Positions 2,708 through 62,837 of a DNA stretch of 64,000 nucleotides are shown in pieces. Made by a program: the position numbers and the translations under genes. The stretch is from positions 522-64,521 of the forward strand of contig CALWDY010000012.1 of NCBI GenBank assembly GCA_944376825.1, given 5' to 3'. The DNA comes from an uncultured Clostridia bacterium. Lineage in GTDB: Bacteria; Bacillota; Clostridia; Christensenellales; UBA1242. The notes beneath the pieces were generated by a model. It did not search any database. It was not told the DNA's origin and was given only the letters and a program-made list of their open reading frames with translations. Positions within the stretch are counted from its first letter, which is position 1, and every line of letters starts with the position of its first letter.

Positions 2708-2736
2708 TTGCATATTATTTTTATATTTGCTATTAT
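2708..2736 (+). promoter_or_regulatory. Sigma-70-type promoter of the peroxiredoxin/Fur-like operon
   Basis: TTGCAT (2708..2713), a 17-nt spacer ending in TGc (extended -10), then TATTAT (2731..2736). Confidence 0.55.
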
Positions 2737-2761
2737 CTTATTGGAAATGATTTTCAATAAG
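2737..2761 (+). promoter_or_regulatory. Candidate Fur/PerR-type operator (25-bp near-perfect palindrome)
   Basis: CTTATTGGAAATGATTTTCAATAAG has 7-bp perfect outer arms plus AAAT/ATTT inner arms. It lies immediately after the -10 and before the Shine-Dalgarno at 2783. A Fur-family regulator is encoded in the same operon. Confidence 0.45.
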
Positions 2762-2794
2762 GCAACATTTCAACAAACTTTAAGGAGGTTTATT

Positions 2795-3484
2795 ATGGAA
2801 AACAATAATTTAGAAATTAAAAAAATGCCTTTAATTGGTGACGAAGCACCAAGTTTTGTGGCAACTACAACTCAAGGACAAATCAATTTCCCTGCTGATT
2901 ACAAAGGTAAATGGGTTATCTTATTTTCACACCCTGCAGATTTTACACCAGTCTGCACAACAGAATTTATGACTTTTGGTTCAATGATGAAAGAATTTCA
3001 AGAACTAAATACTGAACTTATTGGGTTATCTGTTGATTCATTATACTCACATATTGCATGGCTTAGAAAAATTCAAGAACTTGAATGGAAAGACAAAAAA
3101 CACATTGAAGTTAAATTCCCACTTATTGAAGATATTAGAATGGAAGTGGCAAATAAATATGGTATGATTCAACCAAATTCTTCAAATACTCAAGCTGTTA
3201 GAGCTGTGTTTATCATTGACCCTAAAGGAATTATTAGAACTATATTATACTACCCTCTTTCAACAGGCAGGAATTTCGATGAAATAAAAAGAATTATTCT
3301 TGCACTACAAAAAGCTGATAAAGACAATGTTGCAACTCCTGCCGATTGGAGACCGGGAGATGATGTTATAATTCCTACTGCAGGTTCTTGTGGGACTGCA
3401 AAGGAAAGGGTGGAAAATCAAACTGACGAACAATATTGCCTTGATTGGTTTATGTGTTTCAAAAAAGAAAAAGGACAAAAATAG
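2795..3484 (+). CDS. Peroxiredoxin (AhpC/TSA family, Prx6/1-Cys-like)
   Basis: FSHPADFTPVCTTE peroxidatic-Cys motif. AAGGAGG Shine-Dalgarno at 2782..2788, 6 nt before ATG 2795. The track ORF start at 2708 is an upstream in-frame artefact. Confidence 0.85.
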   Translation: MENNNLEIKKMPLIGDEAPSFVATTTQGQINFPADYKGKWVILFSHPADFTPVCTTEFMTFGSMMKEFQELNTELIGLSVDSLYSHIAWLRKIQELEWKDKKHIEVKFPLIEDIRMEVANKYGMIQPNSSNTQAVRAVFIIDPKGIIRTILYYPLSTGRNFDEIKRIILALQKADKDNVATPADWRPGDDVIIPTAGSCGTAKERVENQTDEQYCLDWFMCFKKEKGQK

Positions 3485-3492
3485 TAATAGTA

Positions 3493-3888
3493 ATGGTTAA
3501 TAGAAATACCAAACAAAAAGAATTTGTTCTTAATAACCTAAAAAATAGATTTGATCATCCAACATCTCAAAAAATATATGATGACGCACAAAAACAAGGA
3601 ATCAAAATTGGACAAGTTAGCATATATAGAATATTAAACAATTTAGTAAAAGAAGGACTAGTTTGCAAAATTGTCACAAAAGATAATGTTGCTCATTTTG
3701 ATTTTGTAAGAAAAAATCACATTCATTTAGTTTGTAATAATTGTAATCAGATTTTTGATAAAAATTTGAGTAATGACGACAATTTAACAGAACTAATTAA
3801 AGAGTTCAATATATCAATGCAAGATGTCATTTTATATGGCATTTGCAAAAATTGCAAAAATAATAATATTAAAAAAACAATAAAATAA
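3493..3888 (+). CDS. Fur-family metalloregulator (PerR-like by context)
   Basis: Winged-helix stretch QVSIYRILNNLVKEGLV, HFDF, and paired CxxC motifs (CNNC...CKNC). Sits directly downstream of the peroxiredoxin. ATG 3493 chosen over the overlapping upstream start. Confidence 0.7.
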   Translation: MVNRNTKQKEFVLNNLKNRFDHPTSQKIYDDAQKQGIKIGQVSIYRILNNLVKEGLVCKIVTKDNVAHFDFVRKNHIHLVCNNCNQIFDKNLSNDDNLTELIKEFNISMQDVILYGICKNCKNNNIKKTIK

Positions 3889-3936: not shown

Positions 3937-4001
3937 TTGGTTAAAATTTAAATAACTAAAATGCATTTTAATAAAATATATATTTATAAATTGGATATTT
4001 T

Positions 4002-4752
4002 TTATAAATTTTTTCCTTTTTCTTCGAGATAAGCTGAATAATTACAATTATATAATGACATTTCCCTATCATCAATTTCTAATATTTTTTCTGGTATTTT
4101 ATCTAAAAAATATAAATCGTGAAACACTTTAATCTTTGCCACATAAAAAGTTTTAATATAATTTTTTAACCATTCTATTCTTTCTATGTCAAAATTATTT
4201 GTGGATTCATCTAGCAACATTAAATTTGGTCTGGTTATCAAAATTATTGCAGTTTTTTACCCACCACTTAAATTATTATAAAACATAAATAAAGTGTTTT
4301 TACTATATTTTAACCCATCCACAACTGCATTAATATTAACATTTATATAACAGCATTTGAAAAAATCTTTCAGTAATATTGCAAAATTTTTCTAATGTTT
4401 TATTATTCTTTTTAGGTAAACTTTCATTTAATAGGTTTTGCAAAGAATTTAATATTACTTCCTTTTATTAAGGTATTTAAACGCATCTTTTAATATATCA
4501 TAAATACATCTAATTCTCCTTTTACTTAAACTAACTTGATTAAGATATACTACTTTTGCATTCTTTTTATTTTTATGCTTCTTGAATCATATTTTTCTAA
4601 ACATATAATCATTATAAGAAAAGTTGATTTTTAAATATTCATTAGGTCTAACTATTTACAGAACCTCTTCTTCATTTTAAAAAAAATGAGTCATCTTTAT
4701 AAAGCTGTTTAGATCCAAAATCTTTTCAAACCTATCAACTTTAAAAAATCAT
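4002..4752 (-). pseudogene. Decayed partial copy of an ABC-F ATPase (first nucleotide-binding domain only)
   Basis: Conceptual translation across several frames matches the intact ABC-F at 15565..17205. Examples are DFGSKQLYKDDSFFLK vs DFGYGKLFENVSFSLN, IYDILKDAF vs VYDILKDSF, and NNLSGG*KT vs NKLSGGEKT. The Walker A is destroyed (DLMNI*KST). Multiple stops and frameshifts; truncated after NBD1. Confidence 0.85.
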
Positions 4753-4814: not shown

Positions 4815-6200
4815 TTATTTGGCTAAGATTTTTGTAACCAATTTCCTCATATTATATATCCCATTTATTAGATCTTTTTCAGATACTGCAAAATTAATTC
4901 TTGCAACCAACTGTTCTTTTTGGGGCCACATAATAGATTGACCACACAATACTTTAATTAAAGCATCATTGTAAAAAATATCAAATAATTCATAATCGTT
5001 GGTTATTTTTTTATCACCAATGGTTTTCCCTTTTATCATACTAAAATCAAGGACAGCGAAAAAACCAGACTGAACATATTGTGGTTCTACCGCAAATTGA
5101 ATATCAAGAGTATTATAAAGTAAATCCTTGTATTTTGTAGGACCTAATATTTTATAGACTTTCCTTTTTGTTCTAGTATTATATGTTCTATTCAGTAGCG
5201 CTATTAATAACTCAAGTCTATTTTTGTATAATTTATTTAATTTTGTAAAATATTTTTCATAATATTTTTTATTTTTAACAGAAAAAGCCCCTGTAAGTGA
5301 AGATATTGTTAATAAAGAAACAGAATCTAAAGTATGAAAAATAATATCTCTCATTTTTTTTATTACATCATTATTTGCAATCAAAATACCACTTCTTAAT
5401 GCAGCCAAACCAAAACATTTAGATAAACCTAATAATGAAATTATATTATTGGACTCAAAATTTGCCATAGGAATAGGATTGTAATTAGAAAAACAAATAT
5501 CCCTATATATTAAATCATCTATTATAAAAAAATTATATTTTTTAGCTAATTGAGCTAAATTTTTCAACACATCAATTTCTTGCACCCCCAAAACTTTTCC
5601 TGTTGGATTATGTGGATTGCAATTATAAAAAAATTTAACTCTCCCTTGTTTGCCTTGCGACTGCATAGATGAATTATACTTTTTTATTAATTTCTCTATT
5701 TCTTCTATATTAAATATCCAATTTTCTTTTTGTTCTAAATTTATTGTTAAAACTGTAAAACCATGTCTTTCAGGTGTAAAATCAAAAAAACCATAATTAG
5801 GACATGGGATAATTATTGCATCTCCGCATTGACCTAATGCATCAAAAACAAGGTTATACCCGTGCGTCGTTGAATAAGTAAAAACAATATTATTGTCTGC
5901 CACATTGTTATTGTAACCGATAGACTTTAAATATTTTTTTATTATAGCTTTATCATTTAAAGAACCACAAGTCCCCATGTATTGATATAAATCTTTTCTT
6001 TTTAAACATTTTTTAATCTCTTTTACACTAAACTTATAAGGTTTAAACTTGATTGGATCACCGGTCATTAAATTATATTCTTTGCGATTTAACATATATT
6101 TTTTTTGACACATGAAATCATACATAGTTGAAACCAACTTTAATTTTTCATTTTTACAATTTTCTATACTTAAAACCGGAACATCGTTGTTAATTTCCAT
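4815..6200 (-). CDS. PLP-dependent class I/II aminotransferase-fold enzyme (aminotransferase or C-S lyase); last gene of the RiPP-like operon
   Basis: NCNPHNPTG motif and LSKCFGLAALRSG (PLP-lysine region). ATG 6200 is preceded by TAGGTG at 6-nt spacing. An in-frame GTG at 6209 abuts the stop of the upstream gene. Confidence 0.75.
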   Translation of the reverse strand: MEINNDVPVLSIENCKNEKLKLVSTMYDFMCQKKYMLNRKEYNLMTGDPIKFKPYKFSVKEIKKCLKRKDLYQYMGTCGSLNDKAIIKKYLKSIGYNNNVADNNIVFTYSTTHGYNLVFDALGQCGDAIIIPCPNYGFFDFTPERHGFTVLTINLEQKENWIFNIEEIEKLIKKYNSSMQSQGKQGRVKFFYNCNPHNPTGKVLGVQEIDVLKNLAQLAKKYNFFIIDDLIYRDICFSNYNPIPMANFESNNIISLLGLSKCFGLAALRSGILIANNDVIKKMRDIIFHTLDSVSLLTISSLTGAFSVKNKKYYEKYFTKLNKLYKNRLELLIALLNRTYNTRTKRKVYKILGPTKYKDLLYNTLDIQFAVEPQYVQSGFFAVLDFSMIKGKTIGDKKITNDYELFDIFYNDALIKVLCGQSIMWPQKEQLVARINFAVSEKDLINGIYNMRKLVTKILAK

Positions 6201-6209
6201 ACTAAACAC

Positions 6210-7463
6210 CTATAAATCATAATAATTTAATTTTTTTAATTCAAAGTTATTAAGGACATCGCTTTTTAAATAAATATTTTTTAATTTTAATAAAGGTAAA
6301 ATTTTATTTTGTTGGGATTGCATTCTACACAGCTTTAATAAGTATTTTCTATTTCCTGAGCTTTCATATAATTGCGATACATTTCTATATTCCTTACCAA
6401 AAACCAGTTTAAAATATTTAGAAGTGTAAAATATCCCATTTGAATTGCCACCCACATAATTAATTTCCAAATTTATGTCATTATCGTTAGGCTCTGCCAA
6501 CCTGCAACTATGCAATTTTACAACATATCCAAACTTTTCTAATTGTTTTTTTATTTGTAATGCTATAATTTTGTTTGGGTAAAACTCACAATATCCCATT
6601 TTAATTGAACTATTAAAAATTTTCTTCTGCATATTATTATGTTTGTCTGTTTTTTTTGAAGATTTCTGTAAGAGAAAATTGTCTTTTATTTCATAAATGT
6701 AATTTACTTTTTCCAATATTTTAATTTTATCTATACAACCAAAAATGTTTTTTCTCCACATGTCAAATTTATCATCAAAATATTTCTTATTAAATTTTAA
6801 AACAAAAAACAAATTACTGTCATTTATCGATACATTATAATTATTAATTTTGTATAACGGAAAAGTTGTGGGATTGGTCATATCTATTTTACCAGAAACA
6901 AAATCTTTTATTTCTTTTCTAGTGCTTTTTGAAACATTAAATATAATTATGTCATTATTGATATTTTTTAATTTTTTACGATAATATGTATTGCGTTTCA
7001 ATGTAATTTCTTTACGTGTACTTTTTTGTATATAATATGGACCACTTGTCAATCTATTCTTAAAGGGAGAAACATACATTAATGTTAATTTTTCCAAAAA
7101 AAACACATCTTTATTAAACAATTCAATTTGCAATTTATCGTTTATACAAGAAACATTCTTAATGTTTTCAAACAAAAATTTTGCATAACATCTATTATTT
7201 AATATATAATTTAAAGCTTCACAATAATCTTTAGCACTAACCTTTTGACCATCTTGAAAATATAAATCACTTCGTAAAACAAATTCAAAAAACAAATCTT
7301 TTTTATTAATAAATGTCTTACAAGCGTTTGGTATAATTCGGTTCCGTTTATCAAATTTGACCAAAGGATCCATTATCGCTGAATATATCAACACTCCGCT
7401 GTAATCATTTACTAAAAAAGGATTATTAGATAATGGTAATGAATCAACACATATTTTACTCAT
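6210..7463 (-). CDS. Family-5 solute-binding-protein (OppA/DppA/NikA-type) homolog lacking any signal peptide or lipobox
   Basis: SBP_bac_5-like pattern: YSAIMDPLVKFDKRNRIIPNACKTF, LRSDLYFQDGQKVSAKDY, TSGPYYIQ...ITLKRNTYY, VSGKIDMT. The N-terminus MSKICVDSLPLSNNPF has no hydrophobic h-region. Start overlaps the upstream stop (ATGA). Confidence 0.6.
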   Translation of the reverse strand: MSKICVDSLPLSNNPFLVNDYSGVLIYSAIMDPLVKFDKRNRIIPNACKTFINKKDLFFEFVLRSDLYFQDGQKVSAKDYCEALNYILNNRCYAKFLFENIKNVSCINDKLQIELFNKDVFFLEKLTLMYVSPFKNRLTSGPYYIQKSTRKEITLKRNTYYRKKLKNINNDIIIFNVSKSTRKEIKDFVSGKIDMTNPTTFPLYKINNYNVSINDSNLFFVLKFNKKYFDDKFDMWRKNIFGCIDKIKILEKVNYIYEIKDNFLLQKSSKKTDKHNNMQKKIFNSSIKMGYCEFYPNKIIALQIKKQLEKFGYVVKLHSCRLAEPNDNDINLEINYVGGNSNGIFYTSKYFKLVFGKEYRNVSQLYESSGNRKYLLKLCRMQSQQNKILPLLKLKNIYLKSDVLNNFELKKLNYYDL

Positions 7464-8413
7464 CTTTCGTTTTCCTTAAACTTAACAATCAATTCTCTAT
7501 TTAAAGACTTTACACTTTCAAATCTATCCAATAAAAAAAATATAATATCCCAAGCCATATATGTTGCTATTAAAGTATTGGTTACTCCAAAAGAACTTTT
7601 GCAAGGAAATATGTATTTAATTTTGCTTAAAGCTCTATCTAGTTTAGTTATGTAATTATTTTTATCATTGTTGTTATTAAACAGTGGACCATAATGTCCT
7701 TCAAAAACACCAACACCCCCGAAAATTACTGGTGTATTGTACTTTTTAGATGCTTTTAATATTATTTTTTGTATAAATAATGGTGGAGTATCTGCAGCAT
7801 TAACAATTATGTCTATATGATTTTTATCAAGTATTTCAATCAAATCTTCTTCTTTTGATATAAATTTGTTATAACACATAACGCTTGCCTCATTTGAAAC
7901 AGATTTTATGTATTTTTTTAATACTTTTGTCTTTAACTGTCCTATTTCCTTCATTTTGTATACAAATTGCCTATTTAAATTAGAAATACTTATCTTATCA
8001 AAATCTATAATTACATATTTTTTAATGCCAACAGCAAGAAGTTGATTTATTATCTCCGAACAAATCCCCCCAGCACCAACAAAAAGAACTGTTTTTTCTT
8101 GCAATAATGATATATTATTAATATTATCAAAATTATGCATAAACAATTCAGTTCGTTCTGTACTGGTTTGAAACGATTTTATTATATTTTCTGGCGCCTC
8201 TTCCAACACTTCATTATTTACCAAAAACTCAAATGTTTTTTGAGAAAAATCTTTATCATCAATGATAGAAAAAGATTTTGAAAGATTGACCAACAGATTA
8301 TAATCTTTTTCAGGTAAACAATGCCTAATTGTTACTTGATTGTTTTCAAATAAAATTGTATTATCGCCCATAAATAACATCTTTTTTGCATCATTAAAAA
8401 TATATTTACTCAT
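7460..8413 (-). CDS. E1/ThiF/MoeB-like adenylyltransferase with a ~100-aa N-terminal extension (peptide-clamp/RRE-like)
   Basis: VLFVGAGGICSEIINQLLAVGIKKYVIIDFDKISISNLNRQF is the Rossmann GxGGxG plus NLNRQ signature, and NAADTP is present. The N-terminal part is predicted beta-rich (TILFENNQVTIRH). 8-nt overlap with the upstream gene. Confidence 0.75.
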   Translation of the reverse strand: MSKYIFNDAKKMLFMGDNTILFENNQVTIRHCLPEKDYNLLVNLSKSFSIIDDKDFSQKTFEFLVNNEVLEEAPENIIKSFQTSTERTELFMHNFDNINNISLLQEKTVLFVGAGGICSEIINQLLAVGIKKYVIIDFDKISISNLNRQFVYKMKEIGQLKTKVLKKYIKSVSNEASVMCYNKFISKEEDLIEILDKNHIDIIVNAADTPPLFIQKIILKASKKYNTPVIFGGVGVFEGHYGPLFNNNNDKNNYITKLDRALSKIKYIFPCKSSFGVTNTLIATYMAWDIIFFLLDRFESVKSLNRELIVKFKENER

Positions 8414-9674
8414 TGCTAACCACCCTAAGCATATTATCTTTTACAAGTAGAATAAAAATTTCTTTAATAGATTTTAGTTCACTAAAATCATATTTTAAAA
8501 GATTTTGTTCAAATGTTTTGTCAAATGATATTTTTTTTATAAGATTATAGGCTTCTTGGTCGATGATAACATTTTTACATCCTATTAAAACATATTTATC
8601 CTTGTTTTTAACTATTTTTGCAATGCCTGTTTTAAAATGAAATTTTTTTATTTTGTCCCAACTTTCTTCAATTAATTCATTTACCAAAACATCATTGCAA
8701 CCAGATGCAGTTTTTCCTATTTCGCACTTACATCCACCAATACATCTTACAAATTTTGCACAATTTTTACATATAAGTGAGCAATTTCTTATATGAGATT
8801 TTAAAATTTCGTTATTATTTTCCCATATCTCTTGCAACGAAGAAGAATATAAATTGCCCAATATATCAGTAGAATTTCCACAAATTGTCACATCACCATT
8901 TGTTTCAATCGCACAAGATTCTATACCTGCGTTACAGGGAACAACATCATCTAAATCGATATTATTGCTATAACAGCCAACGGAACAATGTCCAAAATTA
9001 ATATAACTTTTTTCACTTCGCAATTTTTTTAAAAGCGTCAAAAGTTTGACTGCCAATTGTTTGGAATCTTTTGTTTGACCTTTTCCAATTTGAAAAACTC
9101 TTGTAACATTAAGTTTTATCCCCAAGCTTTTACAAATATTCGCTACAGATTGTAAATCCTTATAATTAGTGTTAAAATCAGTAGCAGTATAACAAATATC
9201 AATATAGATATTGGGATATGCGTTTCTCAAATATTTTATATTACTTATAACTCTTTCATAACAAGATGATTTGGTTATTGCGTTGTGAGTTTTTTCTCTA
9301 CCATGAAGAGAAATAGATATACCATTTACATAATTAAGACATTCTTTAAGATGAGGACTAGATAGCAAACAACCATTTGTTACAACACATTGGTATAAAC
9401 TTAGAGTTTTGCCGTATTTTAACAGGTCTAAAAAATTAGAATACATAAAAGGTTCTCCACCAGTATAAAAAACTCTAATTATTCCAAAATTTTTTAATTG
9501 TAATAAAAGGTCTTTTGCAAATTTAAAGTCCATTTCAATATGCTTGCTTTCACCTTGAGAACAAAATGAACAATTTAACATACAATTGTTTGTTATTTTA
9601 ACAAATACTGAAAAAGGATGTTCATTTAACAAATACTCATAATGGTTAGATAATATATTATTGTTATAAAGCAT
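8406..9674 (-). CDS. Radical SAM enzyme with a SPASM domain and a C-terminal PqqD-like (RRE-like) extension; putative peptide maturase
   Basis: CMLNCSFC (Cx3Cx2C) at residues ~31-38 and GGEPF. SPASM cysteines are CAIETNGDVTIC and CKNCAKFVRCIGGC (Cx2Cx5Cx3C). About 100 aa follow SPASM (KIVKNKDKYVLIGCKNVIIDQEAYNLIKKI). Confidence 0.85.
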   Translation of the reverse strand: MLYNNNILSNHYEYLLNEHPFSVFVKITNNCMLNCSFCSQGESKHIEMDFKFAKDLLLQLKNFGIIRVFYTGGEPFMYSNFLDLLKYGKTLSLYQCVVTNGCLLSSPHLKECLNYVNGISISLHGREKTHNAITKSSCYERVISNIKYLRNAYPNIYIDICYTATDFNTNYKDLQSVANICKSLGIKLNVTRVFQIGKGQTKDSKQLAVKLLTLLKKLRSEKSYINFGHCSVGCYSNNIDLDDVVPCNAGIESCAIETNGDVTICGNSTDILGNLYSSSLQEIWENNNEILKSHIRNCSLICKNCAKFVRCIGGCKCEIGKTASGCNDVLVNELIEESWDKIKKFHFKTGIAKIVKNKDKYVLIGCKNVIIDQEAYNLIKKISFDKTFEQNLLKYDFSELKSIKEIFILLVKDNMLRVVSNE

Positions 9675-9677
9675 AAG

Positions 9678-11585
9678 CTATCCTTTTAAAATTATATTAA
9701 GCTTTTCTATTTCTTCCCCCAAAAACACATCATAGAAAATATCTACTACATTCTCATTTTTATAATTAATATTTCTTATTTTTAACAACTCGGCAATTTC
9801 ACCATCTCTTTTTTCAAAATAATCAGGGTCCATTGCCCCCATATCCCATATTATTTGATAAGTACTATTTTTAATTTCACTTAAACACTCTAAAAACTCA
9901 CATGTCTTTTTAAGCTTTTTGCTTTTAACTTGAATTTGTTTGTTTAACAAATCATTAAAACTGATATTTTCCTTTTCCAATAATTGAATTGACTGGTTGT
10001 AACTTTCTAATAGAGTTTGGCCAAATGGAATAACTCCAACTAATAATTCATTAATTGCTGCACAATATTCTTTAATAAAAATTTTTAATAATTCATCATC
10101 GCAACTATCTAATGCCTTTACTAGTTTTTTAACAATTAAAAGAAGTTGATCTTTTATTGTTTTTAAAAAATCAGCATCTAAGTTTTTCCCCGCTTGATTG
10201 ATTTGACTATAAAATTGTAAAAATAGAGGTAATTTTTTAAACCTTTCAATTTCCATTATCCACAAATACTTGTTATTGTCTTCACTATATTTTGGACACA
10301 TTCCAAAATGCAGTCTTACAAACAACTCCAATTCTGCTCTATTATCTCCATCCAATTTTTCATTTGAATGAATTATAATCCCCTCATATGTAAGCTCTAT
10401 AAATACTTTTTGATCCCTTAATGAATATGCAAAATAATTTTCAAAACAATCCAAATCACTATAATTAAAATGAAATTTTTTGTTTAAATAAATATCATTA
10501 TTGTTAATTTTAATAATTCCGTGGATTGTATCAAGTTCAATTTTATCTCCCGTTTTAACTTTTTTTGTAATATCTTTGCAAGCAACAACACAAGGTATAT
10601 TTAATTCCCTAGCCAAAATTGCAGCATGACATAAAACAGAACCCGACTCCGTGATAATAGCCGATGCTTTTTTCATTGCTGGCAAAAAATATGTTTCAGT
10701 TGCCTGAGATATTAAAATGCTACCTTCTGGGAATTTATTAATTAATTTAACCATATCCTCATAAGGTAGATCAAAGTCTATGAAATAAGCGTCCCCATTG
10801 ACATTTCCATTTGTTATGATTATTCCTTGCCCTTCACTGTTAGAATATTCTTTATTAATATAAATTGGCTTTGTTATTGGCCTCATTTGAGTAATAAATG
10901 TACGATTTTCATTATCCACGCACCACTCAATATCAACGCCCTTAGGATAAGTATTGTTAATTTTGTTTATAATTGTAATAAGTTGTTGAATATTTTCCAA
11001 ATTTATAAAATTTCCGCTATACTCACAATAATTTTCTTCAAATTTACCATTTATAAATGGGACAACCATTTTAAAAGAATTATAAATTCCTGAAACTAAT
11101 TTATCTCCCTCCCCCTCAACAATTTCAATCATAGCAGCCCGTTGCCCATTGACATTTAGAGCATTTGTAAAACACACACCAGAATATACTGGTTCAATCA
11201 TTTCCTGAATAATAATACTCATTTCAACTTTATTATTAGTATATGATTTAACGACTTCTGAAGTGGAACTTTTAAGTACAAACAAAATTGCTTCCTTAAT
11301 TTTAAAATAATCATTGTCAACATTTAGCATTGTTTTAAATATACCCGCAAAAGAATTTAATTCGCCGTCTTCAACATCTGCAGAAGATCTAACTGCAAAT
11401 TTTTGTGATTTTGAAAAATGAGAAATAAAATCTTTTATTGCAATCTCATCCACCTTTTCATTTTTAAAACTTTTTACAATTATTCCTTTAGGAATTCTAA
11501 TATTCATTTTTGAAAGCAAGCTTAACCCATAAGCCTTACCACCGCACAAATTCGAACAAGTATCATATGTATATATCACAAGCAC
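9678..11585 (-). CDS. PPDK/PEP-synthase-like phosphotransferase: ATP-grasp PPDK_N, then a phosphohistidine swivel domain, then an unknown ~270-aa helical C-terminal domain
   Basis: CGGKAYGLSLL, FAVRSSADVEDGELNSFAGIF, IIQEMIEPVYSGVCFT and TQMRPIT (PPDK_N-like). ITESGSVLCHAAILARELNIPCVV is the PEP-utilizer mobile-domain His motif. The start is uncertain: GTG at 11585 or GTG at 11579, the latter better spaced from AGAGGTG. Confidence 0.75.
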   Translation of the reverse strand: MLVIYTYDTCSNLCGGKAYGLSLLSKMNIRIPKGIIVKSFKNEKVDEIAIKDFISHFSKSQKFAVRSSADVEDGELNSFAGIFKTMLNVDNDYFKIKEAILFVLKSSTSEVVKSYTNNKVEMSIIIQEMIEPVYSGVCFTNALNVNGQRAAMIEIVEGEGDKLVSGIYNSFKMVVPFINGKFEENYCEYSGNFINLENIQQLITIINKINNTYPKGVDIEWCVDNENRTFITQMRPITKPIYINKEYSNSEGQGIIITNGNVNGDAYFIDFDLPYEDMVKLINKFPEGSILISQATETYFLPAMKKASAIITESGSVLCHAAILARELNIPCVVACKDITKKVKTGDKIELDTIHGIIKINNNDIYLNKKFHFNYSDLDCFENYFAYSLRDQKVFIELTYEGIIIHSNEKLDGDNRAELELFVRLHFGMCPKYSEDNNKYLWIMEIERFKKLPLFLQFYSQINQAGKNLDADFLKTIKDQLLLIVKKLVKALDSCDDELLKIFIKEYCAAINELLVGVIPFGQTLLESYNQSIQLLEKENISFNDLLNKQIQVKSKKLKKTCEFLECLSEIKNSTYQIIWDMGAMDPDYFEKRDGEIAELLKIRNINYKNENVVDIFYDVFLGEEIEKLNIILKG

Positions 11586-11617
11586 ACCTCTTTATATATT
11601 TAAATTTTAATGTAAAT

Positions 11618-11646
11618 AATACCAAGCACAAAAAGTGCTTGGTATT
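11618..11646 (-). terminator. Strong intercistronic hairpin between the precursor ORF and the first enzyme gene (partial terminator, attenuator or mRNA-stabilising stem)
   Basis: Perfect 12-bp stem AATACCAAGCAC / GTGCTTGGTATT with a 5-nt loop. It starts 10 nt after the peptide stop codon. The downstream tract AUUUACAUU is only moderately U-rich. Confidence 0.55.
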
Positions 11647-11655
11647 ATACTTTTA

Positions 11656-11718
11656 TTAGCTTCTGTGAACACAGCATTCCGCTAATAATTCTTCGTCGGT
11701 CATTTCTACTTCTTTCAT
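11656..11718 (-). CDS. Unannotated 20-aa ORF, candidate RiPP precursor peptide MKEVEMTDEELLAECCVHRS
   Basis: ATG 11718 lies 7 nt downstream of a perfect AGGAGG (11726..11731); TAA stop at 11656..11658. It has its own promoter, is followed by a hairpin, and sits directly upstream of and co-directional with the rSAM/E1-like operon. Acidic N-terminal part and Cys-Cys-Val-His-Arg-Ser C-terminus. Confidence 0.7.
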   Translation of the reverse strand: MKEVEMTDEELLAECCVHRS

Positions 11719-11737
11719 AAACATGCCTCCTATGTAG

Positions 11738-11766
11738 AGTATGCAACAAATTCATTTAAATGTCAA
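11738..11766 (-). promoter_or_regulatory. Sigma-70-type promoter driving the precursor ORF and operon
   Basis: On the minus strand: TTGACA (11761..11766), a 17-nt spacer, then CATACT (11738..11743). The predicted TSS is a few nt upstream of the Shine-Dalgarno, giving a very short leader. Confidence 0.5.
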
Positions 11767-12092
11767 TAAAAAACAATTAAAAGCCATAATGGTAACTAGC
11801 ACATCATCAAACTCATTCATTCAAATAAAATGAGCGTAAAAATTACTCTTATTTTTTTATTCTAAAAACAGTTATGCGCCTTATAAATAGTTATAGCATT
11901 TTTAATTAAGCAACATTTTCAAGTTGTTTGTTATCGGTATCTTAAAAGTTTTTTCAAAACAGACATAGATAAATTAACGCCAATTGACTCTTTTGTTTTA
12001 ATATAAAATGCTATAACAATGTACCTTTAATCAAATTTTCTTTATCAACCATGCACTAAAAAATAAGAAACTCAATTCATCAATATAAAATT

Positions 12093-12311
12093 TTAATAGT
12101 TCTTTATATTTTTTGATACGGCAACAACACGTAAGTTTTTGCAGTCTTGCTTTTTTGCAAAATTCTCAATATGTTTAACAAGCAATTTCCCATAACCCCT
12201 ATCTCTGTAAATGCGACTCACATAAATCTCATCTATGTTAAAAGATTTTTCACCTTTTTCTATATATGCTTTATCTTTTGCTTCAATTTCAAAACATCCA
12301 AATGCGTATAA
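12093..12311 (-). pseudogene. GNAT acetyltransferase C-terminal remnant (no start codon)
   Basis: 72-codon stop-to-stop frame reading ...IDEIYVSRIYRDRGYGKLLVKHIENFAKKQDCKNLRVVAV..., which is GNAT motif A (R-x-x-G-x-G). The N-terminal half and the start are missing. Confidence 0.55.
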
Positions 12312-12392
12312 TTATGCAATTTTAATTTCAAAATTATTTTGCTAATATTTTTTATATTTTAAAAAATATTTTATGTTTTTTCTAATATTTCT

Positions 12393-13685
12393 TTATTTTT
12401 TTATAATTTTATTAAAATCTTTAACAATTTTCAACATACGCTCGTCTAAATACTTTAATCCTTGTTTTTCAATTTCTTTTGGAACACCATAGTAAGCGCC
12501 TGCTATTGCTCCCGTTATTGCCCCCATTGTGTCTGTATCTCCACCCCAAGAAATAACTTTTCTTATTGCATCTTCATATGAATTTGATACCAAAAACGCA
12601 AAAATGCTTTGCGGAACAGACTGTTGACACGAGCCCTCAAATTTGTAATTTTCAAACAAATCGTTTTCATCATAGTTCATTGGATAATAATTTTCGTCAA
12701 TATACTTTCCAATTTCTTCTTTACTACATCCGTTTAATGCCATCCACTCAGCCACCGCTGTTGCTTCTGCTCCTTTAATTCCTTCTGGATGATTGTGTGT
12801 TATCTCAGTTACTTTTCTTGATAACTCTTTTACTTCTTCTAAATTTTTTGCAACATAAGAGATTGCACTTATTCTCATTGCACTCCCATTACCAAAAGAA
12901 TTATAAGGTTTAGTGCTACCCGAAATTAACCACTTATAAAACATTCCACCATAACCTGCTGTGTTATAATAATTTTTACCTATTTCATGCATATTCACAA
13001 TTGTTATTTTGTCAAGATTTGTGTAATCTCCCTTGCAGTCAATTAAACTTTGTGCTATTGCACAAGTCATAACAGTGTCATCAGTAAAACGACAATAATT
13101 ATTGAATAATGGAAAATCTTTTAATTTTAAATTCATAAATTCATAAGGAGAGCCAACTATATCTCCAATTATGGTACCCATAAGCACCAATCTATTATCT
13201 TTAAGAACAAATTCTTCTGGTTTGGCTTCGTCAATACTCAATAAATTTGCTTCTGTAACATTTTTTGTTGCTATGTAGTTGTTTATATGTTCCAAATCTA
13301 TTTTTGATGAAAACCCACAATTCTCGTGAAATAATCTTGAACCTAAATTATAAATTCTAATATGGCAACTTATTGAGTTAAAACCTTTTAAATATTTAAA
13401 AATATATTCATAAATTTTTGTTCCTACGCCTTCTCTTTGGTAATTTGTATTTACAGCAATTTGTGCAATATACAAATCACCAATTCGATATAAATCTTTT
13501 TTTAAATAAGCATAACCAATTATATTTTTATTTAATCGTGCAACAACAAGATAATCGTATGGCAAAATGCCCTCATTTTCAAGTGTTCCCCCATTTTTTG
13601 CTAAATTTTCATTATTTATTTTTAATATTTGATTTTTGTCATTTTCATTTAAACTTTTTAATGTTTCAATTATATATTTTTCCAT
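12393..13685 (-). CDS. Fusion protein: N-terminal GNAT acetyltransferase domain plus C-terminal ADP-ribosylglycohydrolase (ARH/DraG-family) domain
   Basis: GNAT part: LYIAQIAVNTNYQREGVGTKIYEYI. ARH part: GDIVGSPYEF, FTDDTVMT, GNGSAMRISA, GGDTDTMGAITGAIAGAYYG. ATG 13685 (MEKYII) preferred over the upstream start at 13748. Confidence 0.7.
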   Translation of the reverse strand: MEKYIIETLKSLNENDKNQILKINNENLAKNGGTLENEGILPYDYLVVARLNKNIIGYAYLKKDLYRIGDLYIAQIAVNTNYQREGVGTKIYEYIFKYLKGFNSISCHIRIYNLGSRLFHENCGFSSKIDLEHINNYIATKNVTEANLLSIDEAKPEEFVLKDNRLVLMGTIIGDIVGSPYEFMNLKLKDFPLFNNYCRFTDDTVMTCAIAQSLIDCKGDYTNLDKITIVNMHEIGKNYYNTAGYGGMFYKWLISGSTKPYNSFGNGSAMRISAISYVAKNLEEVKELSRKVTEITHNHPEGIKGAEATAVAEWMALNGCSKEEIGKYIDENYYPMNYDENDLFENYKFEGSCQQSVPQSIFAFLVSNSYEDAIRKVISWGGDTDTMGAITGAIAGAYYGVPKEIEKQGLKYLDERMLKIVKDFNKIIKK

Positions 13686-14073
13686 ATTTTTCCTTTTATT
13701 TTTTTGTTTGCAAACATACAATGGTAAATTGAAATATATTAGATACAAATGTTAATTTTTTTGTTTATAAATATTTTTATTATTGTTATCTTTTACTATT
13801 AAAAATTTTATTTATGTATAATTCTGTTGCAAATTTATAATAAAATTTTTACTGTAACTAGATCTACATTCAACGATATTATCTACCAATATGATAGTGT
13901 ACCATACTTATACATTTTGAGGATGAACACACTGAGATGTCTTCCATTTTCAAACAGCAAACAGTTGCATTTTTTATAAATTCATTTAATAAATTTTCTT
14001 TTAAATTACAAAAACTTGATTTCCCTAAAACATATTTAATAATGTATTTCATAAACAAAGCCTCTAATATCAT

Positions 14074-14123: not shown

Positions 14124-14603
14124 TTAGTAAAACATTTTGTCAAGAAACTTTTGCAAAAAATCAATCTCATTTGCCTCGTGGTCAGCCCAAACAATATTAG
14201 GAACTGTGTAATAATTTGCAACAACATTTTTAGTCATTTCAACTATGTTGTTTATTTTCAACGAGTATATCGTCTTTACCGTGTAAATATCAAATTTAGT
14301 ATCGCAAATATAACTGCTAAATACTTTATATCGGTCAGCAAGATCGTCAAAATTTACCACAACAGAATCTTTTGTAATGGCATTTTGATAAGAATCCCCA
14401 TCAAAATCAAAAGGTGCATTGAAGCAAACTTCTGTGCTTTCTAGTCTATATATTTTGTTGTTTTCAGCAACGGCAACTATTTTTGCAAAAGTCCTATTTT
14501 CACTGTTTTGAACTGTTTGCATCATATCATTTGCTGTATAATAAAATGTTGCAGTCCAATTGGTTAAATCTTCGTTTTGAGAAACAATTTGCAATTTACG
14601 CAC
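14124..14603 (-). CDS. Hypothetical protein
   Basis: 159-aa ORF tightly following 14613..15068, with a terminator downstream. No recognisable motifs. Confidence 0.5.
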   Translation of the reverse strand: MRKLQIVSQNEDLTNWTATFYYTANDMMQTVQNSENRTFAKIVAVAENNKIYRLESTEVCFNAPFDFDGDSYQNAITKDSVVVNFDDLADRYKVFSSYICDTKFDIYTVKTIYSLKINNIVEMTKNVVANYYTVPNIVWADHEANEIDFLQKFLDKMFY

Positions 14604-14612
14604 AGCCTCAGC

Positions 14613-15068
14613 TTATTCTATTTGCACCACCATATTTGCCGTATTTTCATCAATTTCAAAATAGAAATGTGCAGTTTGATAAACGCCATATAAAGTACCT
14701 TTACTTTCATAATATGTTTCTTCACTAAGTTCTGGCTCTTCGATTGCCATCTTGTATAACTCCATCATAAAAACAATGTTATCGTTGTTTGTATAAGGTC
14801 CAGACCCATTATATTCAACTGTGCCAGACAAATAATCGTGAGTTCCTTCTTGAAGTTCCTTATTTGCCATAAGCGAAATCTCACTGTTTGGGCTTGCAGG
14901 ATCATTTGTTATTGCTTGATAACAATTCCCAACCAATGTTTTTAAATCTGTTGTTGTTAAACTTTTGTTTGAATTTTCTCGTCCAAAAAACAAAACCCCA
15001 AAATAAATGGCAACAACTGTTACTACTGTAGCATATAAAGCAAGAATTACTGTTCCAAATTTTTTCAT
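14613..15068 (-). CDS. Hypothetical N-terminally membrane-anchored or secreted protein
   Basis: 151-aa ORF with N-terminal MKKFGTVILALYATVVTVVAIYFGVLFF (signal anchor). Confidence 0.55.
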   Translation of the reverse strand: MKKFGTVILALYATVVTVVAIYFGVLFFGRENSNKSLTTTDLKTLVGNCYQAITNDPASPNSEISLMANKELQEGTHDYLSGTVEYNGSGPYTNNDNIVFMMELYKMAIEEPELSEETYYESKGTLYGVYQTAHFYFEIDENTANMVVQIE

Positions 15069-15564: not shown

Positions 15565-17205
15565 ATGATTATATTAGATGTAAATAAATTAAGTAAAGAT
15601 TTTGGATATGGAAAACTTTTTGAAAATGTTTCTTTCTCACTTAACGAAGGAGAATCTATTTCTATTGTAGGGCCAAATGGCTGTGGAAAGTCCACTTTGT
15701 TAAAAATGATTGCGGGAATTGAAAAAATAGACAACGGAACGGTAAGCATAAAAAAAGATGCAAAAGTCGCATATCTTGACCAGGTCGGTTCAAGTTATGA
15801 AGATGATAGATGTGTTTATGATATTTTAAAAGATTCTTTTGTTGAATTAAACGAAATGGAAAAGCGATTAAACATGTTACAAGAACAATTAAGTCAACAA
15901 AGTTTAAGCAACGATTATGACACAATTCTTAAGAAATATTGCAACTTGATAGAAAAATTTTCTATGCTTGGCGGTTATGATATTGACACAAATATTAACA
16001 TGGTTGCCGAAGGGTTAAAAATTAATAAAACAATATTAAATCAAAGTTATAACAAATTAAGTGGCGGTGAAAAAACTTTGGTGCAACTTGCAAAATCACT
16101 TTTGATAAGACCTGATTTGCTTTTGCTTGATGAACCAACAAACCACTTAGATATAGAAAGAATAGAATGGTTGGAAAAGTATATAAAGTCGTTTAAAGGT
16201 GCAACAGTTATTATTTCTCACGATAGATATTTTTTAGATAAAATGTCCAACAAAATATTGTCATTAGAGTTTGGCACTCCAAAGGTTTATTGCACCAATT
16301 ACACTGGGTATTTAAAAGAAAAAGAATTGGAATTTGAAAAACAATTAACAGCTTATAAAAATCAACAGCAACAAATAGAGAGATTTGAAAAACAAATTAA
16401 ATATTTTGCTCAAATTGGAATGGCAAAGAACAGTTCTGCCATGTGTGATAGAGCCCACACCCTGCAAACTCAATTAGATAGATTGAAAAAAAATGCAATA
16501 AAAAAACCAAAGCAAACAGCAAACATAAATGTTGCATTTGATGAAGTTAAAAAATCAAGTCAAGTGATAATTGATGCAAAAAATTTAAAAACACAAACTC
16601 CAAGTAAAAATATAATTTTAGACAACATAAATATAAAAATTTGTTCAAAAGAAAGAGTCGCCATTATTGGAAATAACGGAAGTGGCAAATCTACTTTTAT
16701 TAAAATAGTTCTTAAAGCAAACGAACTGCCATTTGAAGGAGAAATTGTTGTTGGTCCAAGTGTAAAGATTGGATACTTACCTCAAATAATAAAATTTACA
16801 AACGAAAACTTTACTCTTTTAGAATATTTTAAAAATTCATTAGGTGTAGACGAACAAAAAGCTCGACAAATTTTAGCAAGTTTCCATTTTTACAAAGAAG
16901 ATGTCAATAAAAAGGTTAAAAACCTATCAGGTGGTGAAAAAATTAAGGTAAAATTAGCAGAACTTTTACAACAAAAAATAAACACCTTGATATTTGATGA
17001 ACCAACAAACCACATCGACATTCCAACAAAAGAAGTTTTGGAAAATGCACTTGATGAATTTAAAGGTACTTTGATATTTGTTAGTCATGATAGATATTTT
17101 ATTAACAAGTTTGCAGATAAAACAATAGAGTTTAAAAACGGCAAAACAACAACATATGTTGGAAACTATGATTTTTATAAACAAGAAAAAAACAAAAAAC
17201 TATAA
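15565..17205 (+). CDS. ABC-F family ATPase (two ABC domains, no transmembrane domain; translation-factor or antibiotic-resistance type)
   Basis: Two Walker A motifs (GPNGCGKST, GNNGSGKST), two signatures (LSGGEKT, LSGGEKI), two Walker B motifs (LLLLDEPTNHLD, TLIFDEPTNHID) and a Q/K-rich interdomain linker. AAGGAG lies 6 nt before the ATG. Confidence 0.9.
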   Translation: MIILDVNKLSKDFGYGKLFENVSFSLNEGESISIVGPNGCGKSTLLKMIAGIEKIDNGTVSIKKDAKVAYLDQVGSSYEDDRCVYDILKDSFVELNEMEKRLNMLQEQLSQQSLSNDYDTILKKYCNLIEKFSMLGGYDIDTNINMVAEGLKINKTILNQSYNKLSGGEKTLVQLAKSLLIRPDLLLLDEPTNHLDIERIEWLEKYIKSFKGATVIISHDRYFLDKMSNKILSLEFGTPKVYCTNYTGYLKEKELEFEKQLTAYKNQQQQIERFEKQIKYFAQIGMAKNSSAMCDRAHTLQTQLDRLKKNAIKKPKQTANINVAFDEVKKSSQVIIDAKNLKTQTPSKNIILDNINIKICSKERVAIIGNNGSGKSTFIKIVLKANELPFEGEIVVGPSVKIGYLPQIIKFTNENFTLLEYFKNSLGVDEQKARQILASFHFYKEDVNKKVKNLSGGEKIKVKLAELLQQKINTLIFDEPTNHIDIPTKEVLENALDEFKGTLIFVSHDRYFINKFADKTIEFKNGKTTTYVGNYDFYKQEKNKKL

Positions 17206-25301: not shown

Positions 25302-25379
25302 GGTGGTTGTAGCGTAGATGGTTATCGCGCCAGATTGTGGCTCTGGAGATCATGGGTTCGAATCCCATCAATCACCCCA
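25302..25379 (+). tRNA. tRNA-His (anticodon GTG) with a genomically encoded G-1 and CCA end
   Basis: Cloverleaf read by eye. Acceptor GTGGTTG/CAATCAC, anticodon loop TTGTGGC (GTG at 25337..25339), T-arm ATGGG-TTCGAAT-CCCAT. An extra 5' G opposes discriminator C73. Terminal CCA present. Confidence 0.9.
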
Positions 25380-27044: not shown

Positions 27045-27200
27045 TTTGCCTCCTTTTTAGATTTGTATGTTTTAATTAAAAAATCCTTTGGCCAAAGTAA
27101 AGCCGAAAGGATTTAATACCAATCTAAACTTCGCCTCGGCAAGCACAATAAATTGTTTACGAAAAATCACTTGCTGTCTTTGGAAAAGGACAATATTTAA
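27045..27200 (-). promoter_or_regulatory. Probable L10 (rplJ) autoregulatory leader RNA
   Basis: GC-enriched, stem-rich 5' region. Examples are AAATCCTTTCGGC...GCCAAAGGATTT and CAGCAAGTG...CTTGCCGAGGCGAAG. It sits directly upstream of rplJ, as in Firmicutes L10 leaders. The family assignment is not verifiable by eye. Confidence 0.4.
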
Positions 27201-27249
27201 TTAACGGACTGATAATATCACAAATTTTTTAACATGTCAACGCTTTTGT

Positions 27250-62763: not shown

Positions 62764-62837
62764 TGGCAGGGGTGGAAGGAATCGAACCCTCCTCTGGAGT
62801 TTTGGAGACTCTCATTCTACCGATGAACTACACCCCT
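62764..62837 (-). tRNA. tRNA-Trp (anticodon CCA), CCA end encoded
   Basis: Acceptor AGGGGTG/CACCCCT and anticodon loop CTCCAAA (CCA = plus-strand TGG at 62803..62805). T-arm GAGGG-TTCGATT-CCTTC. Confidence 0.9.

Follow-up and report, generated by a model that had tools for sequence, protein, structure and literature searches.

A putative operon for an apparently undescribed family of ribosomally made peptides in an uncultured Clostridia bacterium

The stretch of DNA analysed here, 64,000 nucleotides of contig CALWDY010000012.1 (assembly GCA_944376825.1, positions 522 to 64,521) from an uncultured, gut-type Clostridia bacterium, is referred to as the window. At 4815-11766 it contains a block of minus-strand genes headed by a 20-codon open reading frame (ORF), and on balance we favour the view that this block is the biosynthetic operon for a peptide that is made on the ribosome and modified after translation (a RiPP), belonging to a family so far undescribed. 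The product is probably translation-targeting. The cluster family is real and apparently undescribed and, judged from its genes, it would work most like a microcin C- or ThiF-type RiPP pathway, with a sactipeptide-type radical SAM (rSAM) enzyme as an accessory. A preliminary description of the window had proposed a RiPP-type operon of an undescribed kind, with a short precursor at its head, and this proposal was supported, since homologous operons carry a conserved small ORF and no operon enzyme reaches the cut-off of a characterised primary-metabolism family or of any other curated NCBIfam model. Neither the precursors nor a 380-411-aa protein of related clusters is covered by an NCBIfam model. 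The claim that the enzyme set matches no described RiPP class likewise held within the partial coverage of our literature search, in which we found no RiPP cluster with a dikinase, phosphohistidine or rifampin-phosphotransferase-type enzyme. The features of the operon are as follows.

11738-11766, minus strand: promoter-like site TTGACA-17 nt-CATACT (10/12 matches), upstream of the precursor gene
11656-11718, minus strand: precursor gene heading the operon, 20 codons plus stop (ATG 11718, stop 11656-11658), MKEVEMTDEELLAECCVHRS
11616-11648, minus strand: stem-loop of 14 bp, about -20.7 kcal/mol, separating the precursor gene from the first enzyme gene
9678-11585, minus strand: phosphotransferase resembling pyruvate phosphate dikinase (PPDK) and PEP synthase (Pfam PPDK_N and PEP-utilizers)
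8406-9674, minus strand: putative rSAM/SPASM peptide maturase (Pfam Radical_SAM and SPASM; C31xxxC35xxC38 motif)
7460-8413, minus strand: MccB-like E1/ThiF adenylyltransferase (Pfam ThiF), with an N-terminal peptide-clamp region of ~100 aa
6210-7463, minus strand: SBP_bac_5 (SBP5; NikA/OppA-type) homolog of 417 aa by Pfam, with orthologs in both cluster architectures described below
4815-6209, minus strand: fold-type I pyridoxal phosphate (PLP) enzyme of the aminotransferase/C-S lyase class, with the Schiff-base Lys of the SKCFG motif present

A conserved precursor at the head of the operon

Relatives of the operon, numbered here as loci (L), were gathered with the PPDK-like protein, which returned 24 full-length relatives of 30-94% identity, almost all metagenome proteins, whose contigs were compared. 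Seven further loci came from a metagenome scan with a 6-sequence alignment of the kinase C-terminal domain, and contigs of close relatives were added. A contig scan with the full-length kinase alignment was drawn to generic PEP-synthase motifs; it gave almost only ordinary PEP synthases and one full-length relative (L009), and did not bring up the genome of the window itself. In all loci with a ThiF-type cluster (17/17) a homologous small ORF lies directly upstream of the PPDK-like gene, as the preliminary description had expected of a genuine precursor.

The peptides share an N-terminal MxKFIKSLF, which is common in the family, and a leader motif D/E-x-E/Q-L-L, and their C-terminus is invariant as [His/Gln/Lys]-Arg-[Ser/Thr/Cys]-stop, with the penultimate Arg in every member. 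The window peptide ends in ELLAECCVHRS, that of L001 in ELLEECCVHRS and that of L100 in ELLAECCVHRC; throughout L100-L103 the last residue is Cys and not Ser (MEEVEMTDEELLAECCVHRC). Precursors of the same general kind are found in L091 (MLKFIKSIFNKENELEDRELLAKCCVHRS) and, given here by their tails, in L093 (KQLLTNCCIHRS) and L094 (KQLLASCCVHRS). L002 and L095-L099 encode MxKxIKSLFSKKLDxxDLELLAICE[T/A]HRS, L090 ends in CETHRT, and the remaining tails are those of L008 (AELATIAMSQRS), L089 (KELDNVYFTKRS), L092 (QELETLSMTQRC) and L004 (VEILECSMTQRC). None of the 17 precursors has a C-terminal Asn; all end in Ser, Thr or Cys. The Cys-Cys pair, which had been taken as the hallmark of the peptide, did not keep that role, because Cys is altogether absent from two members of the family and it is the C-terminal tripeptide that is invariant. 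The C-terminal Ser codon is AGC/AGT in some loci and TCA/TCT in others, and there are synonymous differences in the codons for His, Cys and Leu. Selection therefore acts on the amino-acid sequence of the precursor and not on the RNA.

The precursor gene of the window has a GGAGG ribosome binding site at 11726-11730, 7 nt upstream of the ATG. It had been described as a promoter-bearing ORF. The ORF, the ribosome binding site and the sequence of the promoter-like site were all confirmed, but the promoter call alone is weak and suggestive at most, because this AT-rich region shows no enrichment of such sites, with 73 counted where 63.6 would be expected. In 14/15 loci checked a hairpin comes after the precursor gene (dG -8 kcal/mol or stronger), with differing sequences; the one in the window probably acts as a partial terminator or attenuator and so fixes the ratio of precursor to enzymes.

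Five long minus-strand ORFs follow head to tail in the order PPDK-like, rSAM-SPASM, ThiF, SBP5 and PLP enzyme. A 3-nt gap (9675-9677) separates the first two, the rSAM-SPASM and ThiF genes overlap by 8 nt (8406-8413; ATGAGTAA), the ThiF and SBP5 genes share an ATGA overlap (7460-7463), and the SBP5 stop TAG directly abuts the GTG start of the PLP-enzyme gene, with an ATG 9 nt further on. On re-reading, the gene order, all junctions and the 20-codon ORF were exactly as first reported. The Pfam domains expected for the enzymes were also recovered, all above their gathering scores: PPDK_N and PEP-utilizers, Radical_SAM and SPASM, ThiF, SBP_bac_5 and Aminotran_1_2. The PPDK-like gene has a GTG at 11579, 7 nt after an AGAGG, which is likely its true start. 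The impression that the operon is rich in AT, Asn, Lys and Ile was borne out: its GC is 0.263, against 0.294 in the remaining window, 0.327 in housekeeping ORFs and 0.288 in the whole window, and its proteins hold more Asn (9.3 vs 5.9%) and Ile (10.1 vs 7.6%) and slightly more Lys (10.9 vs 10.3%) than the comparison proteins. The offset is real but modest. Between the window and L100, a relative that is 92-94% identical, the dN/dS values are 0.139 (kinase), 0.148 (ThiF), 0.127 (SBP5) and 0.102 (aminotransferase), so that all four genes have been under purifying selection since the two lineages split.

Core and accessory enzymes

Mapping by tblastn over all loci resolved two architectures. Architecture A, which comprises the window, L091, L093, L094 and L100-104, is made up of precursor, kinase, rSAM-SPASM, ThiF, SBP5, PLP aminotransferase-like protein and ABC-F; L093 holds the complete set in the order precursor, PPDK-like, rSAM, ThiF, SBP5, aminotransferase and ABC-F. 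In architecture B (L002-5, L008, L089, L090, L092, L095 and L098) precursor, kinase and ThiF are followed, in some loci after a methyltransferase, by a carboxynorspermidine-decarboxylase-like PLP enzyme (nspC E = 3.6e-14), the 380-411-aa unknown protein, SBP5 and ABC-F. The ThiF and SBP5 proteins are full-length orthologs across the two (37% identity for ThiF and 33% for SBP5, the latter between the window and L002), and the core is therefore precursor, kinase, ThiF and SBP5, usually with an ABC-F. The gene set recurs at enzyme identities of 31-51% and in differing genomic contexts. The rSAM and aminotransferase genes, which had been listed as part of the enzyme set, turned out to be lineage-specific accessories, and the defining enzymes are the PPDK-like, MccB-like ThiF and SBP5-like proteins. 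In L008 (3758-5401) and L092 (12761-14383) a class-I methyltransferase and the carboxynorspermidine-decarboxylase-like PLP domain are fused into one protein of 540-547 aa, while they are separate in L089; by analogy, the fusion suggests consecutive steps like the aminopropylation by MccD/MccE. In one lineage only, a 299-aa ORF with a weak match to the uracil-DNA-glycosylase superfamily (E = 2.8e-4) follows the ABC-F gene (L002 16090-16989, also in L003). We found no member of the kinase family on plasmids. A phage-type integrase lies 4 kb from the L100 cluster and an IS transposase adjoins the L004 and L005 clusters.

The PPDK-like protein consists of an ATP-grasp domain (residues 1-245), a His-swivel domain (255-360) and a family-specific C-terminal domain with a beta and a helical part (363-635). 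In the alignment of the kinase family the catalytic His320 is invariant, within the motif LCHAAILARE (TESGSVLCHAAILARE), and so are K439, W442, E445, E506, G522, R593 and Y618 of the C-terminal domain. The AlphaFold2 (AF2) model has a pLDDT of 86, and it shows residues 363-635 as a small beta unit with a helical bundle (pLDDT 80-97). Foldseek with the whole model matched PPDK and rifampin phosphotransferase, and the ATP-grasp and swivel domains resemble PEP synthase, PPDK and rifampin phosphotransferase in both sequence and fold. With these enzymes and with PigC/RedH the window kinase has in common the ATP-grasp domain, the phospho-His swivel and the motif TxxGSxLCHAAI. Enzymes of the PEP synthase/PPDK/rifampin phosphotransferase family are known to place phosphate on hydroxyl or enol oxygens in a range of substrates. 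The His domain of rifampin phosphotransferase is C-terminal, whereas here it is central, and the window kinase differs from the PEP synthase/PPDK group in its private 270-aa C-terminal domain and in its place within a peptide-maturation operon. This domain (274 aa) has no Pfam match and no sequence match in the PDB, and only 29 relatives were found among 1.84 billion representative proteins. An assignment to PEP synthase or PPDK of primary metabolism was rejected: Pfam gave PPDK_N and PEP-utilizers alone, so that the PEP/pyruvate TIM-barrel domain (PF02896) is absent, and in NCBIfam the protein stays below every cut-off (best 160.7 bits against 598).

The most distant kinase relatives belong to L007 (8439-11863) and L009 (8392-11788), the latter a metagenome-assembled genome named "Acetobacter sp. 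46_36". There the kinase follows a 502-aa rSAM protein in a cluster lacking ThiF and SBP5, and a conserved ORF of about 42-54 aa ends in ...SGRLY, unlike the ThiF-type precursors. At least two types of cluster thus pair a kinase of this family with a conserved small ORF upstream, and this branch may represent a second peptide family that uses a PPDK-like kinase. In L006 the kinase stands alone.

For the ThiF-like protein, the only full-length PDB matches are structures of MccB (3h5n and 6om4), which cover query residues 18-307 with E about 1e-10. Its ATP motifs GxGG, DxD...NxNRQ and AD.P do not vary among 10 members of the family, and since they are intact the protein is predicted to be a working adenylyltransferase and not a mere docking protein. 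Pfam gave nothing in the N-terminal 105 aa, and it is this clamp region that the alignment with MccB covers as a module for peptide recognition. The likeness to microcin C (MccA/MccB) extends further: there too a very short precursor heads the operon, the conserved feature lies at the C-terminal residue, the MccB E1 carries the same kind of N-terminal peptide clamp, and a GNAT gene is nearby in both systems. An MccD/MccE-like pair is present in architecture B but not in the window. The window cluster differs from microcin C by the addition of the PPDK-like kinase, the SBP5-like protein and ABC-F, by the lack of an MFS exporter and of MccF, by precursors that end in Arg-Ser/Thr/Cys and never in Asn, and by its hosts, which are Clostridia-type Firmicutes known from metagenomes only. 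In RiPP pathways with ThiF-like enzymes, such as PaaA of pantocin A, EnfB of enterofaecin and IndF, the carboxylate of the peptide is adenylated and attacked by an intramolecular N-nucleophile (PMC12596934, PMC12250964), and the known enzymes of this kind all activate a carboxylate (PMC12596934). The peptides studied here could offer comparable N-nucleophiles, namely the residue at position -3 (His/Gln/Lys) and the invariant Arg. The clusters of PaaA, EnfB and IndF are minimal, with precursor, ThiF-like enzyme and transporter, and the window cluster is larger. A dikinase-type partner of ThiF-like RiPP enzymes is not mentioned in the two 2025 reviews (PMC12596934, PMC12250964). An assignment to the thiazole/oxazole-modified microcins or linear azole-containing peptides (TOMM/LAP) was also rejected, as there is no YcaO protein and the E1-like protein keeps its ATP-binding motifs, unlike the inactive docking proteins of that class.

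The N-terminus of the SBP5 homolog aligns to residue 26 of the NikA chain, which is the start of mature NikA, and there is accordingly no room for a signal peptide.

The rSAM protein has the features of a RiPP maturase. C31, C35 and C38 and the cysteines 230, 234, 247, 265, 302, 305, 311 and 315 are invariant in the family alignment, the best PDB profile matches are SkfB (1.7e-26), CteB, SuiB, PqqE and anSME, and the top Foldseek matches are SuiB, SkfB and CteB. In the AF2 model (pLDDT 81.7), residues from about 346 to 419 form four strands and three helices, and by this topology the C-terminal domain appears to resemble a RiPP recognition element (RRE) and would be a second peptide-recognition module. 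No Pfam model, PqqD included, scored in the C-terminal 84 aa, so this call comes from topology only. SkfB, CteB and SuiB share with the window protein the CxxxCxxC motif, the SPASM cysteines, an RRE-like domain and Cys in the core of the substrate, but their RRE is N-terminal and that of the window protein C-terminal. In NCBIfam the rSAM protein scores below all maturase cut-offs (PqqE 53 vs 381 bits, MftC 72 vs 265 bits). It has roughly 35 relatives.

All four rSAM-linked loci considered (window, L091, L093 and L094) have a Cys-Cys precursor. In L100-L103, which represent a natural rSAM knock-out, a 1.1-kb deletion that breaks the reading frame (window 8428-9544; L100 8304-8438) leaves 43 rSAM codons and the other genes intact. 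Because the rSAM gene is absent from most members and deleted in these relatives of 92-94% DNA identity, it is accessory and not class-defining, and membership in the sactipeptide/ranthipeptide class was rejected for the same reason. A homolog of the window rSAM (41% identity) lies in L098 together with a 528-aa unknown protein (5741-8517), upstream of an architecture-B cluster. The precursor of L098 has a single Cys (CETHRS), and this combination of rSAM and architecture B is an intermediate arrangement.

The window-type PLP enzyme is confined to the rSAM-type architecture. It falls between aminotransferases and the PatB/MalY C-S lyases, its ortholog in L093 is 42% identical, and its best NCBIfam match is GntC with 119.7 bits against a cut-off of 415. 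No relationship was detectable between this aminotransferase and the 411-aa protein of the sister architecture. The preliminary description had likened the aminotransferase and the SBP5 protein to MbnN and MbnE of methanobactin. This analogy was not borne out, as neither the operon proteins nor the related loci have a domain of the MbnB (DUF692/MNIO) or MbnC type. A relationship to PQQ or mycofactocin was dismissed as well, since PqqB/C/D and MftB/D/E/F are absent and the core is Arg-Ser/Thr/Cys, not Glu...Tyr or Gly-Val-Tyr. PADLOC gave only generic similarities to viperin, E1 and ATPase proteins, which lend no support to a known defence system.

ABC-F genes beside the operon

Three further features of the window lie around the operon, and among them the ABC-F gives the strongest hint of function.

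3996-4739, minus strand: ABC-F pseudogene, N-terminal half (tblastn and DNA alignment to the intact L100 gene)
12059-12312, minus strand: GNAT acetyltransferase fragment (85% DNA identity to L100 13765-14017; motif A, RDRGYGKLL)
15565-17205, plus strand: intact ABC-F of 546 aa (Pfam) of the antibiotic-resistance (ARE) type, 3.8 kb upstream of the operon and divergent

The ABC-F remnant lies within a DNA block that is 91.7% identical to L100. Several indels that shift the frame, a deletion of 12 nt and an in-frame stop in LSGG* disrupt it, and it is truncated after about residue 255. An intact ABC-F gene occupies the same operon-terminal position in L093, L100-102, L002-5, L089 and L098 (550 aa in L093 and L100-102), and this comparison identifies the window fragment as the operon's final gene in a decayed state. 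The L100 homolog of the GNAT fragment is an 80-aa ORF after ABC-F, and the window copy is displaced to the upstream side. Gene remnants on both flanks had been noticed earlier; they are indeed present, but they are not unrelated debris, as the alignment to L100 identifies both as decayed cluster members. Since the relatives keep the order aminotransferase, ABC-F, GNAT and the window has split remnants, the island has been rearranged, which implies an event such as tandem duplication plus deletion, or re-integration.

The intact ABC-F of the window shares 62-63% identity with the ABC-Fs of L001 (adjacent and divergent) and L089 (operon-terminal), and 55% with the L093 protein. In NCBIfam the ABC-Fs of the window, L002 and L089 score 465, 440 and 455 bits for NF000355 (ribosomal protection-like ABC-F, cut-off 380), and these three fall short of the cut-offs for EttA, Uup, Vga, Lsa, Sal, Msr, OptrA, CplR and the producer type. 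A linked ABC-F was found in 7/8 independent lineages with contigs that reach far enough. From these similarities, the gene at 15565-17205 is likely a surviving immunity or partner gene, and it probably substitutes for the decayed operon-terminal copy. ARE ABC-Fs in antibiotic clusters protect against compounds that bind the peptidyl transferase centre and the exit tunnel. The self-resistance proteins OleB, CarA, SrmB, TlrC, LmrC and Ard1 have two ATPase domains and a linker, as the cluster ABC-F does, and are encoded in or beside the biosynthetic operon, as here. Known cluster ABC-Fs guard macrolide, lincosamide, streptogramin or nucleoside clusters, and in the literature searched we came upon no ABC-F described in a RiPP cluster.

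Between the cluster and the intact ABC-F gene, a 451-aa fusion of an N-terminal GNAT and a C-terminal ADP-ribosylglycohydrolase domain is encoded at 12393-13748 (minus strand); it is present in no related locus. Between this gene and the ABC-F lie minus-strand ORFs of 159 aa (14124-14603) and 151 aa (14613-15068), which have no Pfam or PADLOC match and are absent from the related loci. The second of them has an N-terminal hydrophobic segment.

Proposed pathway and competing explanations

If the block is a RiPP operon, a pathway can be outlined. The MccB-like enzyme would hold the leader and adenylate the C-terminal carboxylate, which could then be attacked by an N-nucleophile, either the invariant Arg, the His/Gln/Lys at position -3 or an external partner. 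The PPDK-like enzyme would take a phosphoryl group from ATP and, by way of phospho-His320, deliver it to the tail of the peptide, where either the side chain of Ser/Thr/Cys or an activated carbonyl could accept it. The equivalence of Ser, Thr and Cys at the last residue recalls the substrates of azoline formation, and by that analogy a YcaO-like activation of the backbone by the kinase is conceivable. The SBP5-like protein may bind or chaperone the peptide. In the sub-family of the window, the rSAM-SPASM enzyme would dock through its own RRE-like domain and cross-link or otherwise modify the Cys-Cys pair, and the PLP enzyme may supply a further tailoring step. In architecture B, the methyltransferase-decarboxylase pair would fit a phosphorylated or nucleotidylated tail, by analogy with the microcin enzymes. 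The linked ARE ABC-F argues for a 50S target; the product would act on the large ribosomal subunit, and the ABC-F would shield the producer. As a whole, a new RiPP class that combines a PPDK-type phospho-His swivel kinase with an MccB-like E1, that carries a phosphorylated or nucleotidylated Arg-Ser/Thr/Cys warhead binding the 50S subunit and that uses ABC-F for self-resistance is a tentative proposal, which we regard as possible while giving it somewhat less than even chances.

Several observations weigh against this picture. The chemistry is an inference throughout and the adenylated or phosphorylated atom a guess, and the C-terminal Cys variant fits poorly with simple O-phosphorylation. The ABC-F link is circumstantial, for such proteins may be regulators or housekeeping translation factors, and L008 has no linked ABC-F. 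PLP enzymes normally require a free amine, and the one in the window may therefore act on a co-substrate and not on the peptide. The lack of a leader protease and exporter, already remarked on for the window operon, extends to every locus examined, where we found no exporter, protease or peptidase; this would be unusual for a secreted antibiotic. With the operon-terminal ABC-F lost in the window and the rSAM gene lost in the sister strains, the cluster is eroding and production is not assured. All members of the family come from metagenomes, and no isolate is available.

Among other explanations, the cluster could make a microcin C-type Trojan-horse peptidyl-nucleotide, to which the MccB-like enzyme adds a nucleotide at the C-terminal residue and from which, once it has been taken up and proteolysed, a warhead is released that inhibits an aminoacyl-tRNA synthetase and not the ribosome. 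MccB structures are the sole full-length structural relatives of the ThiF-like protein, the GNAT remnants beside the cluster recall the immunity conferred by the MccE C-terminal domain, and the exchange of Ser, Thr and Cys at the final position could direct the product to different synthetases. MccD and the N-terminal domain of MccE add an aminopropyl group, and the methyltransferase and decarboxylase of architecture B recall this pair, but the window architecture does not have them. Microcin C requires its C-terminal Asn to form the N-P bond by way of a succinimide, and this defining residue is missing in 17/17 precursors; MccC-type exporters and MccF are absent as well, microcin C biosynthesis has no part for a PPDK-like kinase, and we know of no ABC-F that protects against synthetase inhibitors. 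We therefore consider this explanation unlikely. About equally doubtful is that the peptide serves as a scaffold or carrier, with its Arg-Ser tail made into a small molecule or cofactor that is kept inside the cell or clipped off by an unlinked protease. Such a route would follow the logic of pearlin, PQQ and mycofactocin biosynthesis, in which the leader is reused, and it would agree with an invariance limited to the last three residues, with the missing exporter and protease, with PLP enzymes that point to free-amine chemistry and with a signal-less SBP5 homolog that could hold a small ligand. Partners of the PEARL-ligase, PqqB/C and MftD/E/F types are absent, however, a cofactor role leaves the linkage to ARE-type ABC-Fs unexplained, and the clusters occur patchily, as islands close to an integrase and transposases, which one would expect of antibiotics more than of cofactors. 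The intracellular, cofactor-like product suggested in the preliminary description is conceivable, but the ribosome-protection-type ABC-F favours a product that targets translation.

Two further explanations would deprive the window operon of a peptide product. It could be a decaying, unproductive remnant of a mobile island, as the operon-terminal ABC-F pseudogene, the displaced GNAT fragment, the 1.1-kb deletion of rSAM in sister strains, the GC below that of host genes and the integrase near the L100 cluster might indicate. Yet the precursor and five enzyme genes are intact and tightly coupled, the dN/dS of 0.10-0.15 reflects purifying selection on four of the enzyme genes, and a homologous ABC-F is intact 3.8 kb away, which makes unproductive decay very unlikely. 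Least probable is that the small ORF is a regulatory leader peptide, acting by Cys-codon attenuation and a hairpin terminator on a small-molecule pathway for sulfur or amino-acid compounds. The tandem Cys codons followed by a strong hairpin and the presence of ThiF-like and C-S-lyase-like enzymes would agree with it, but the Cys codons are missing in two members, the Arg-Ser/Thr/Cys tail is invariant across codon families, the enzymes carry apparent peptide-binding modules (the MccB clamp and the RRE-like domain) and the rSAM is of the RiPP-maturase type. A RiPP operon with a translation-targeting product thus remains our preferred reading.

Should this reading be true, a dikinase-type His-swivel phosphotransferase would join YcaO, LanB/LanKC and ATP-grasp activators in the chemistry of peptide natural products, and MccB-type E1 chemistry would be extended to C-termini other than Asn. 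The product would be a new translation inhibitor, with the ABC-F in the operon as a handle for resistance-guided discovery and target identification, and it would represent a family of peptide antibiotics that target the ribosome, made by uncultured Clostridia of the gut and rumen, with the first RiPP cluster to rely on ABC-F for self-resistance. With only about 30 sequence clusters among 1.8 billion representative proteins, all of them from metagenomes and none recognised by curated models, the family would escape routine annotation. The complete L093 cluster and the naturally rSAM-less L100-L103 offer built-in experimental comparisons.

The nearest named relative of the GyrA protein of the window is a "MAG: Clostridia bacterium" protein of 87% identity. 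Elsewhere in the window, Fur-family and peroxiredoxin genes lie immediately downstream of the cluster (2708-3888, from the annotation of the identical contig L104). A Firmicutes-type L10 leader RNA was found at 27069-27201 (minus strand, 61 bits), and the window further contains tRNA-His(GTG) at 25303-25379 (plus strand) and tRNA-Trp(CCA) at 62764-62837 (minus strand).

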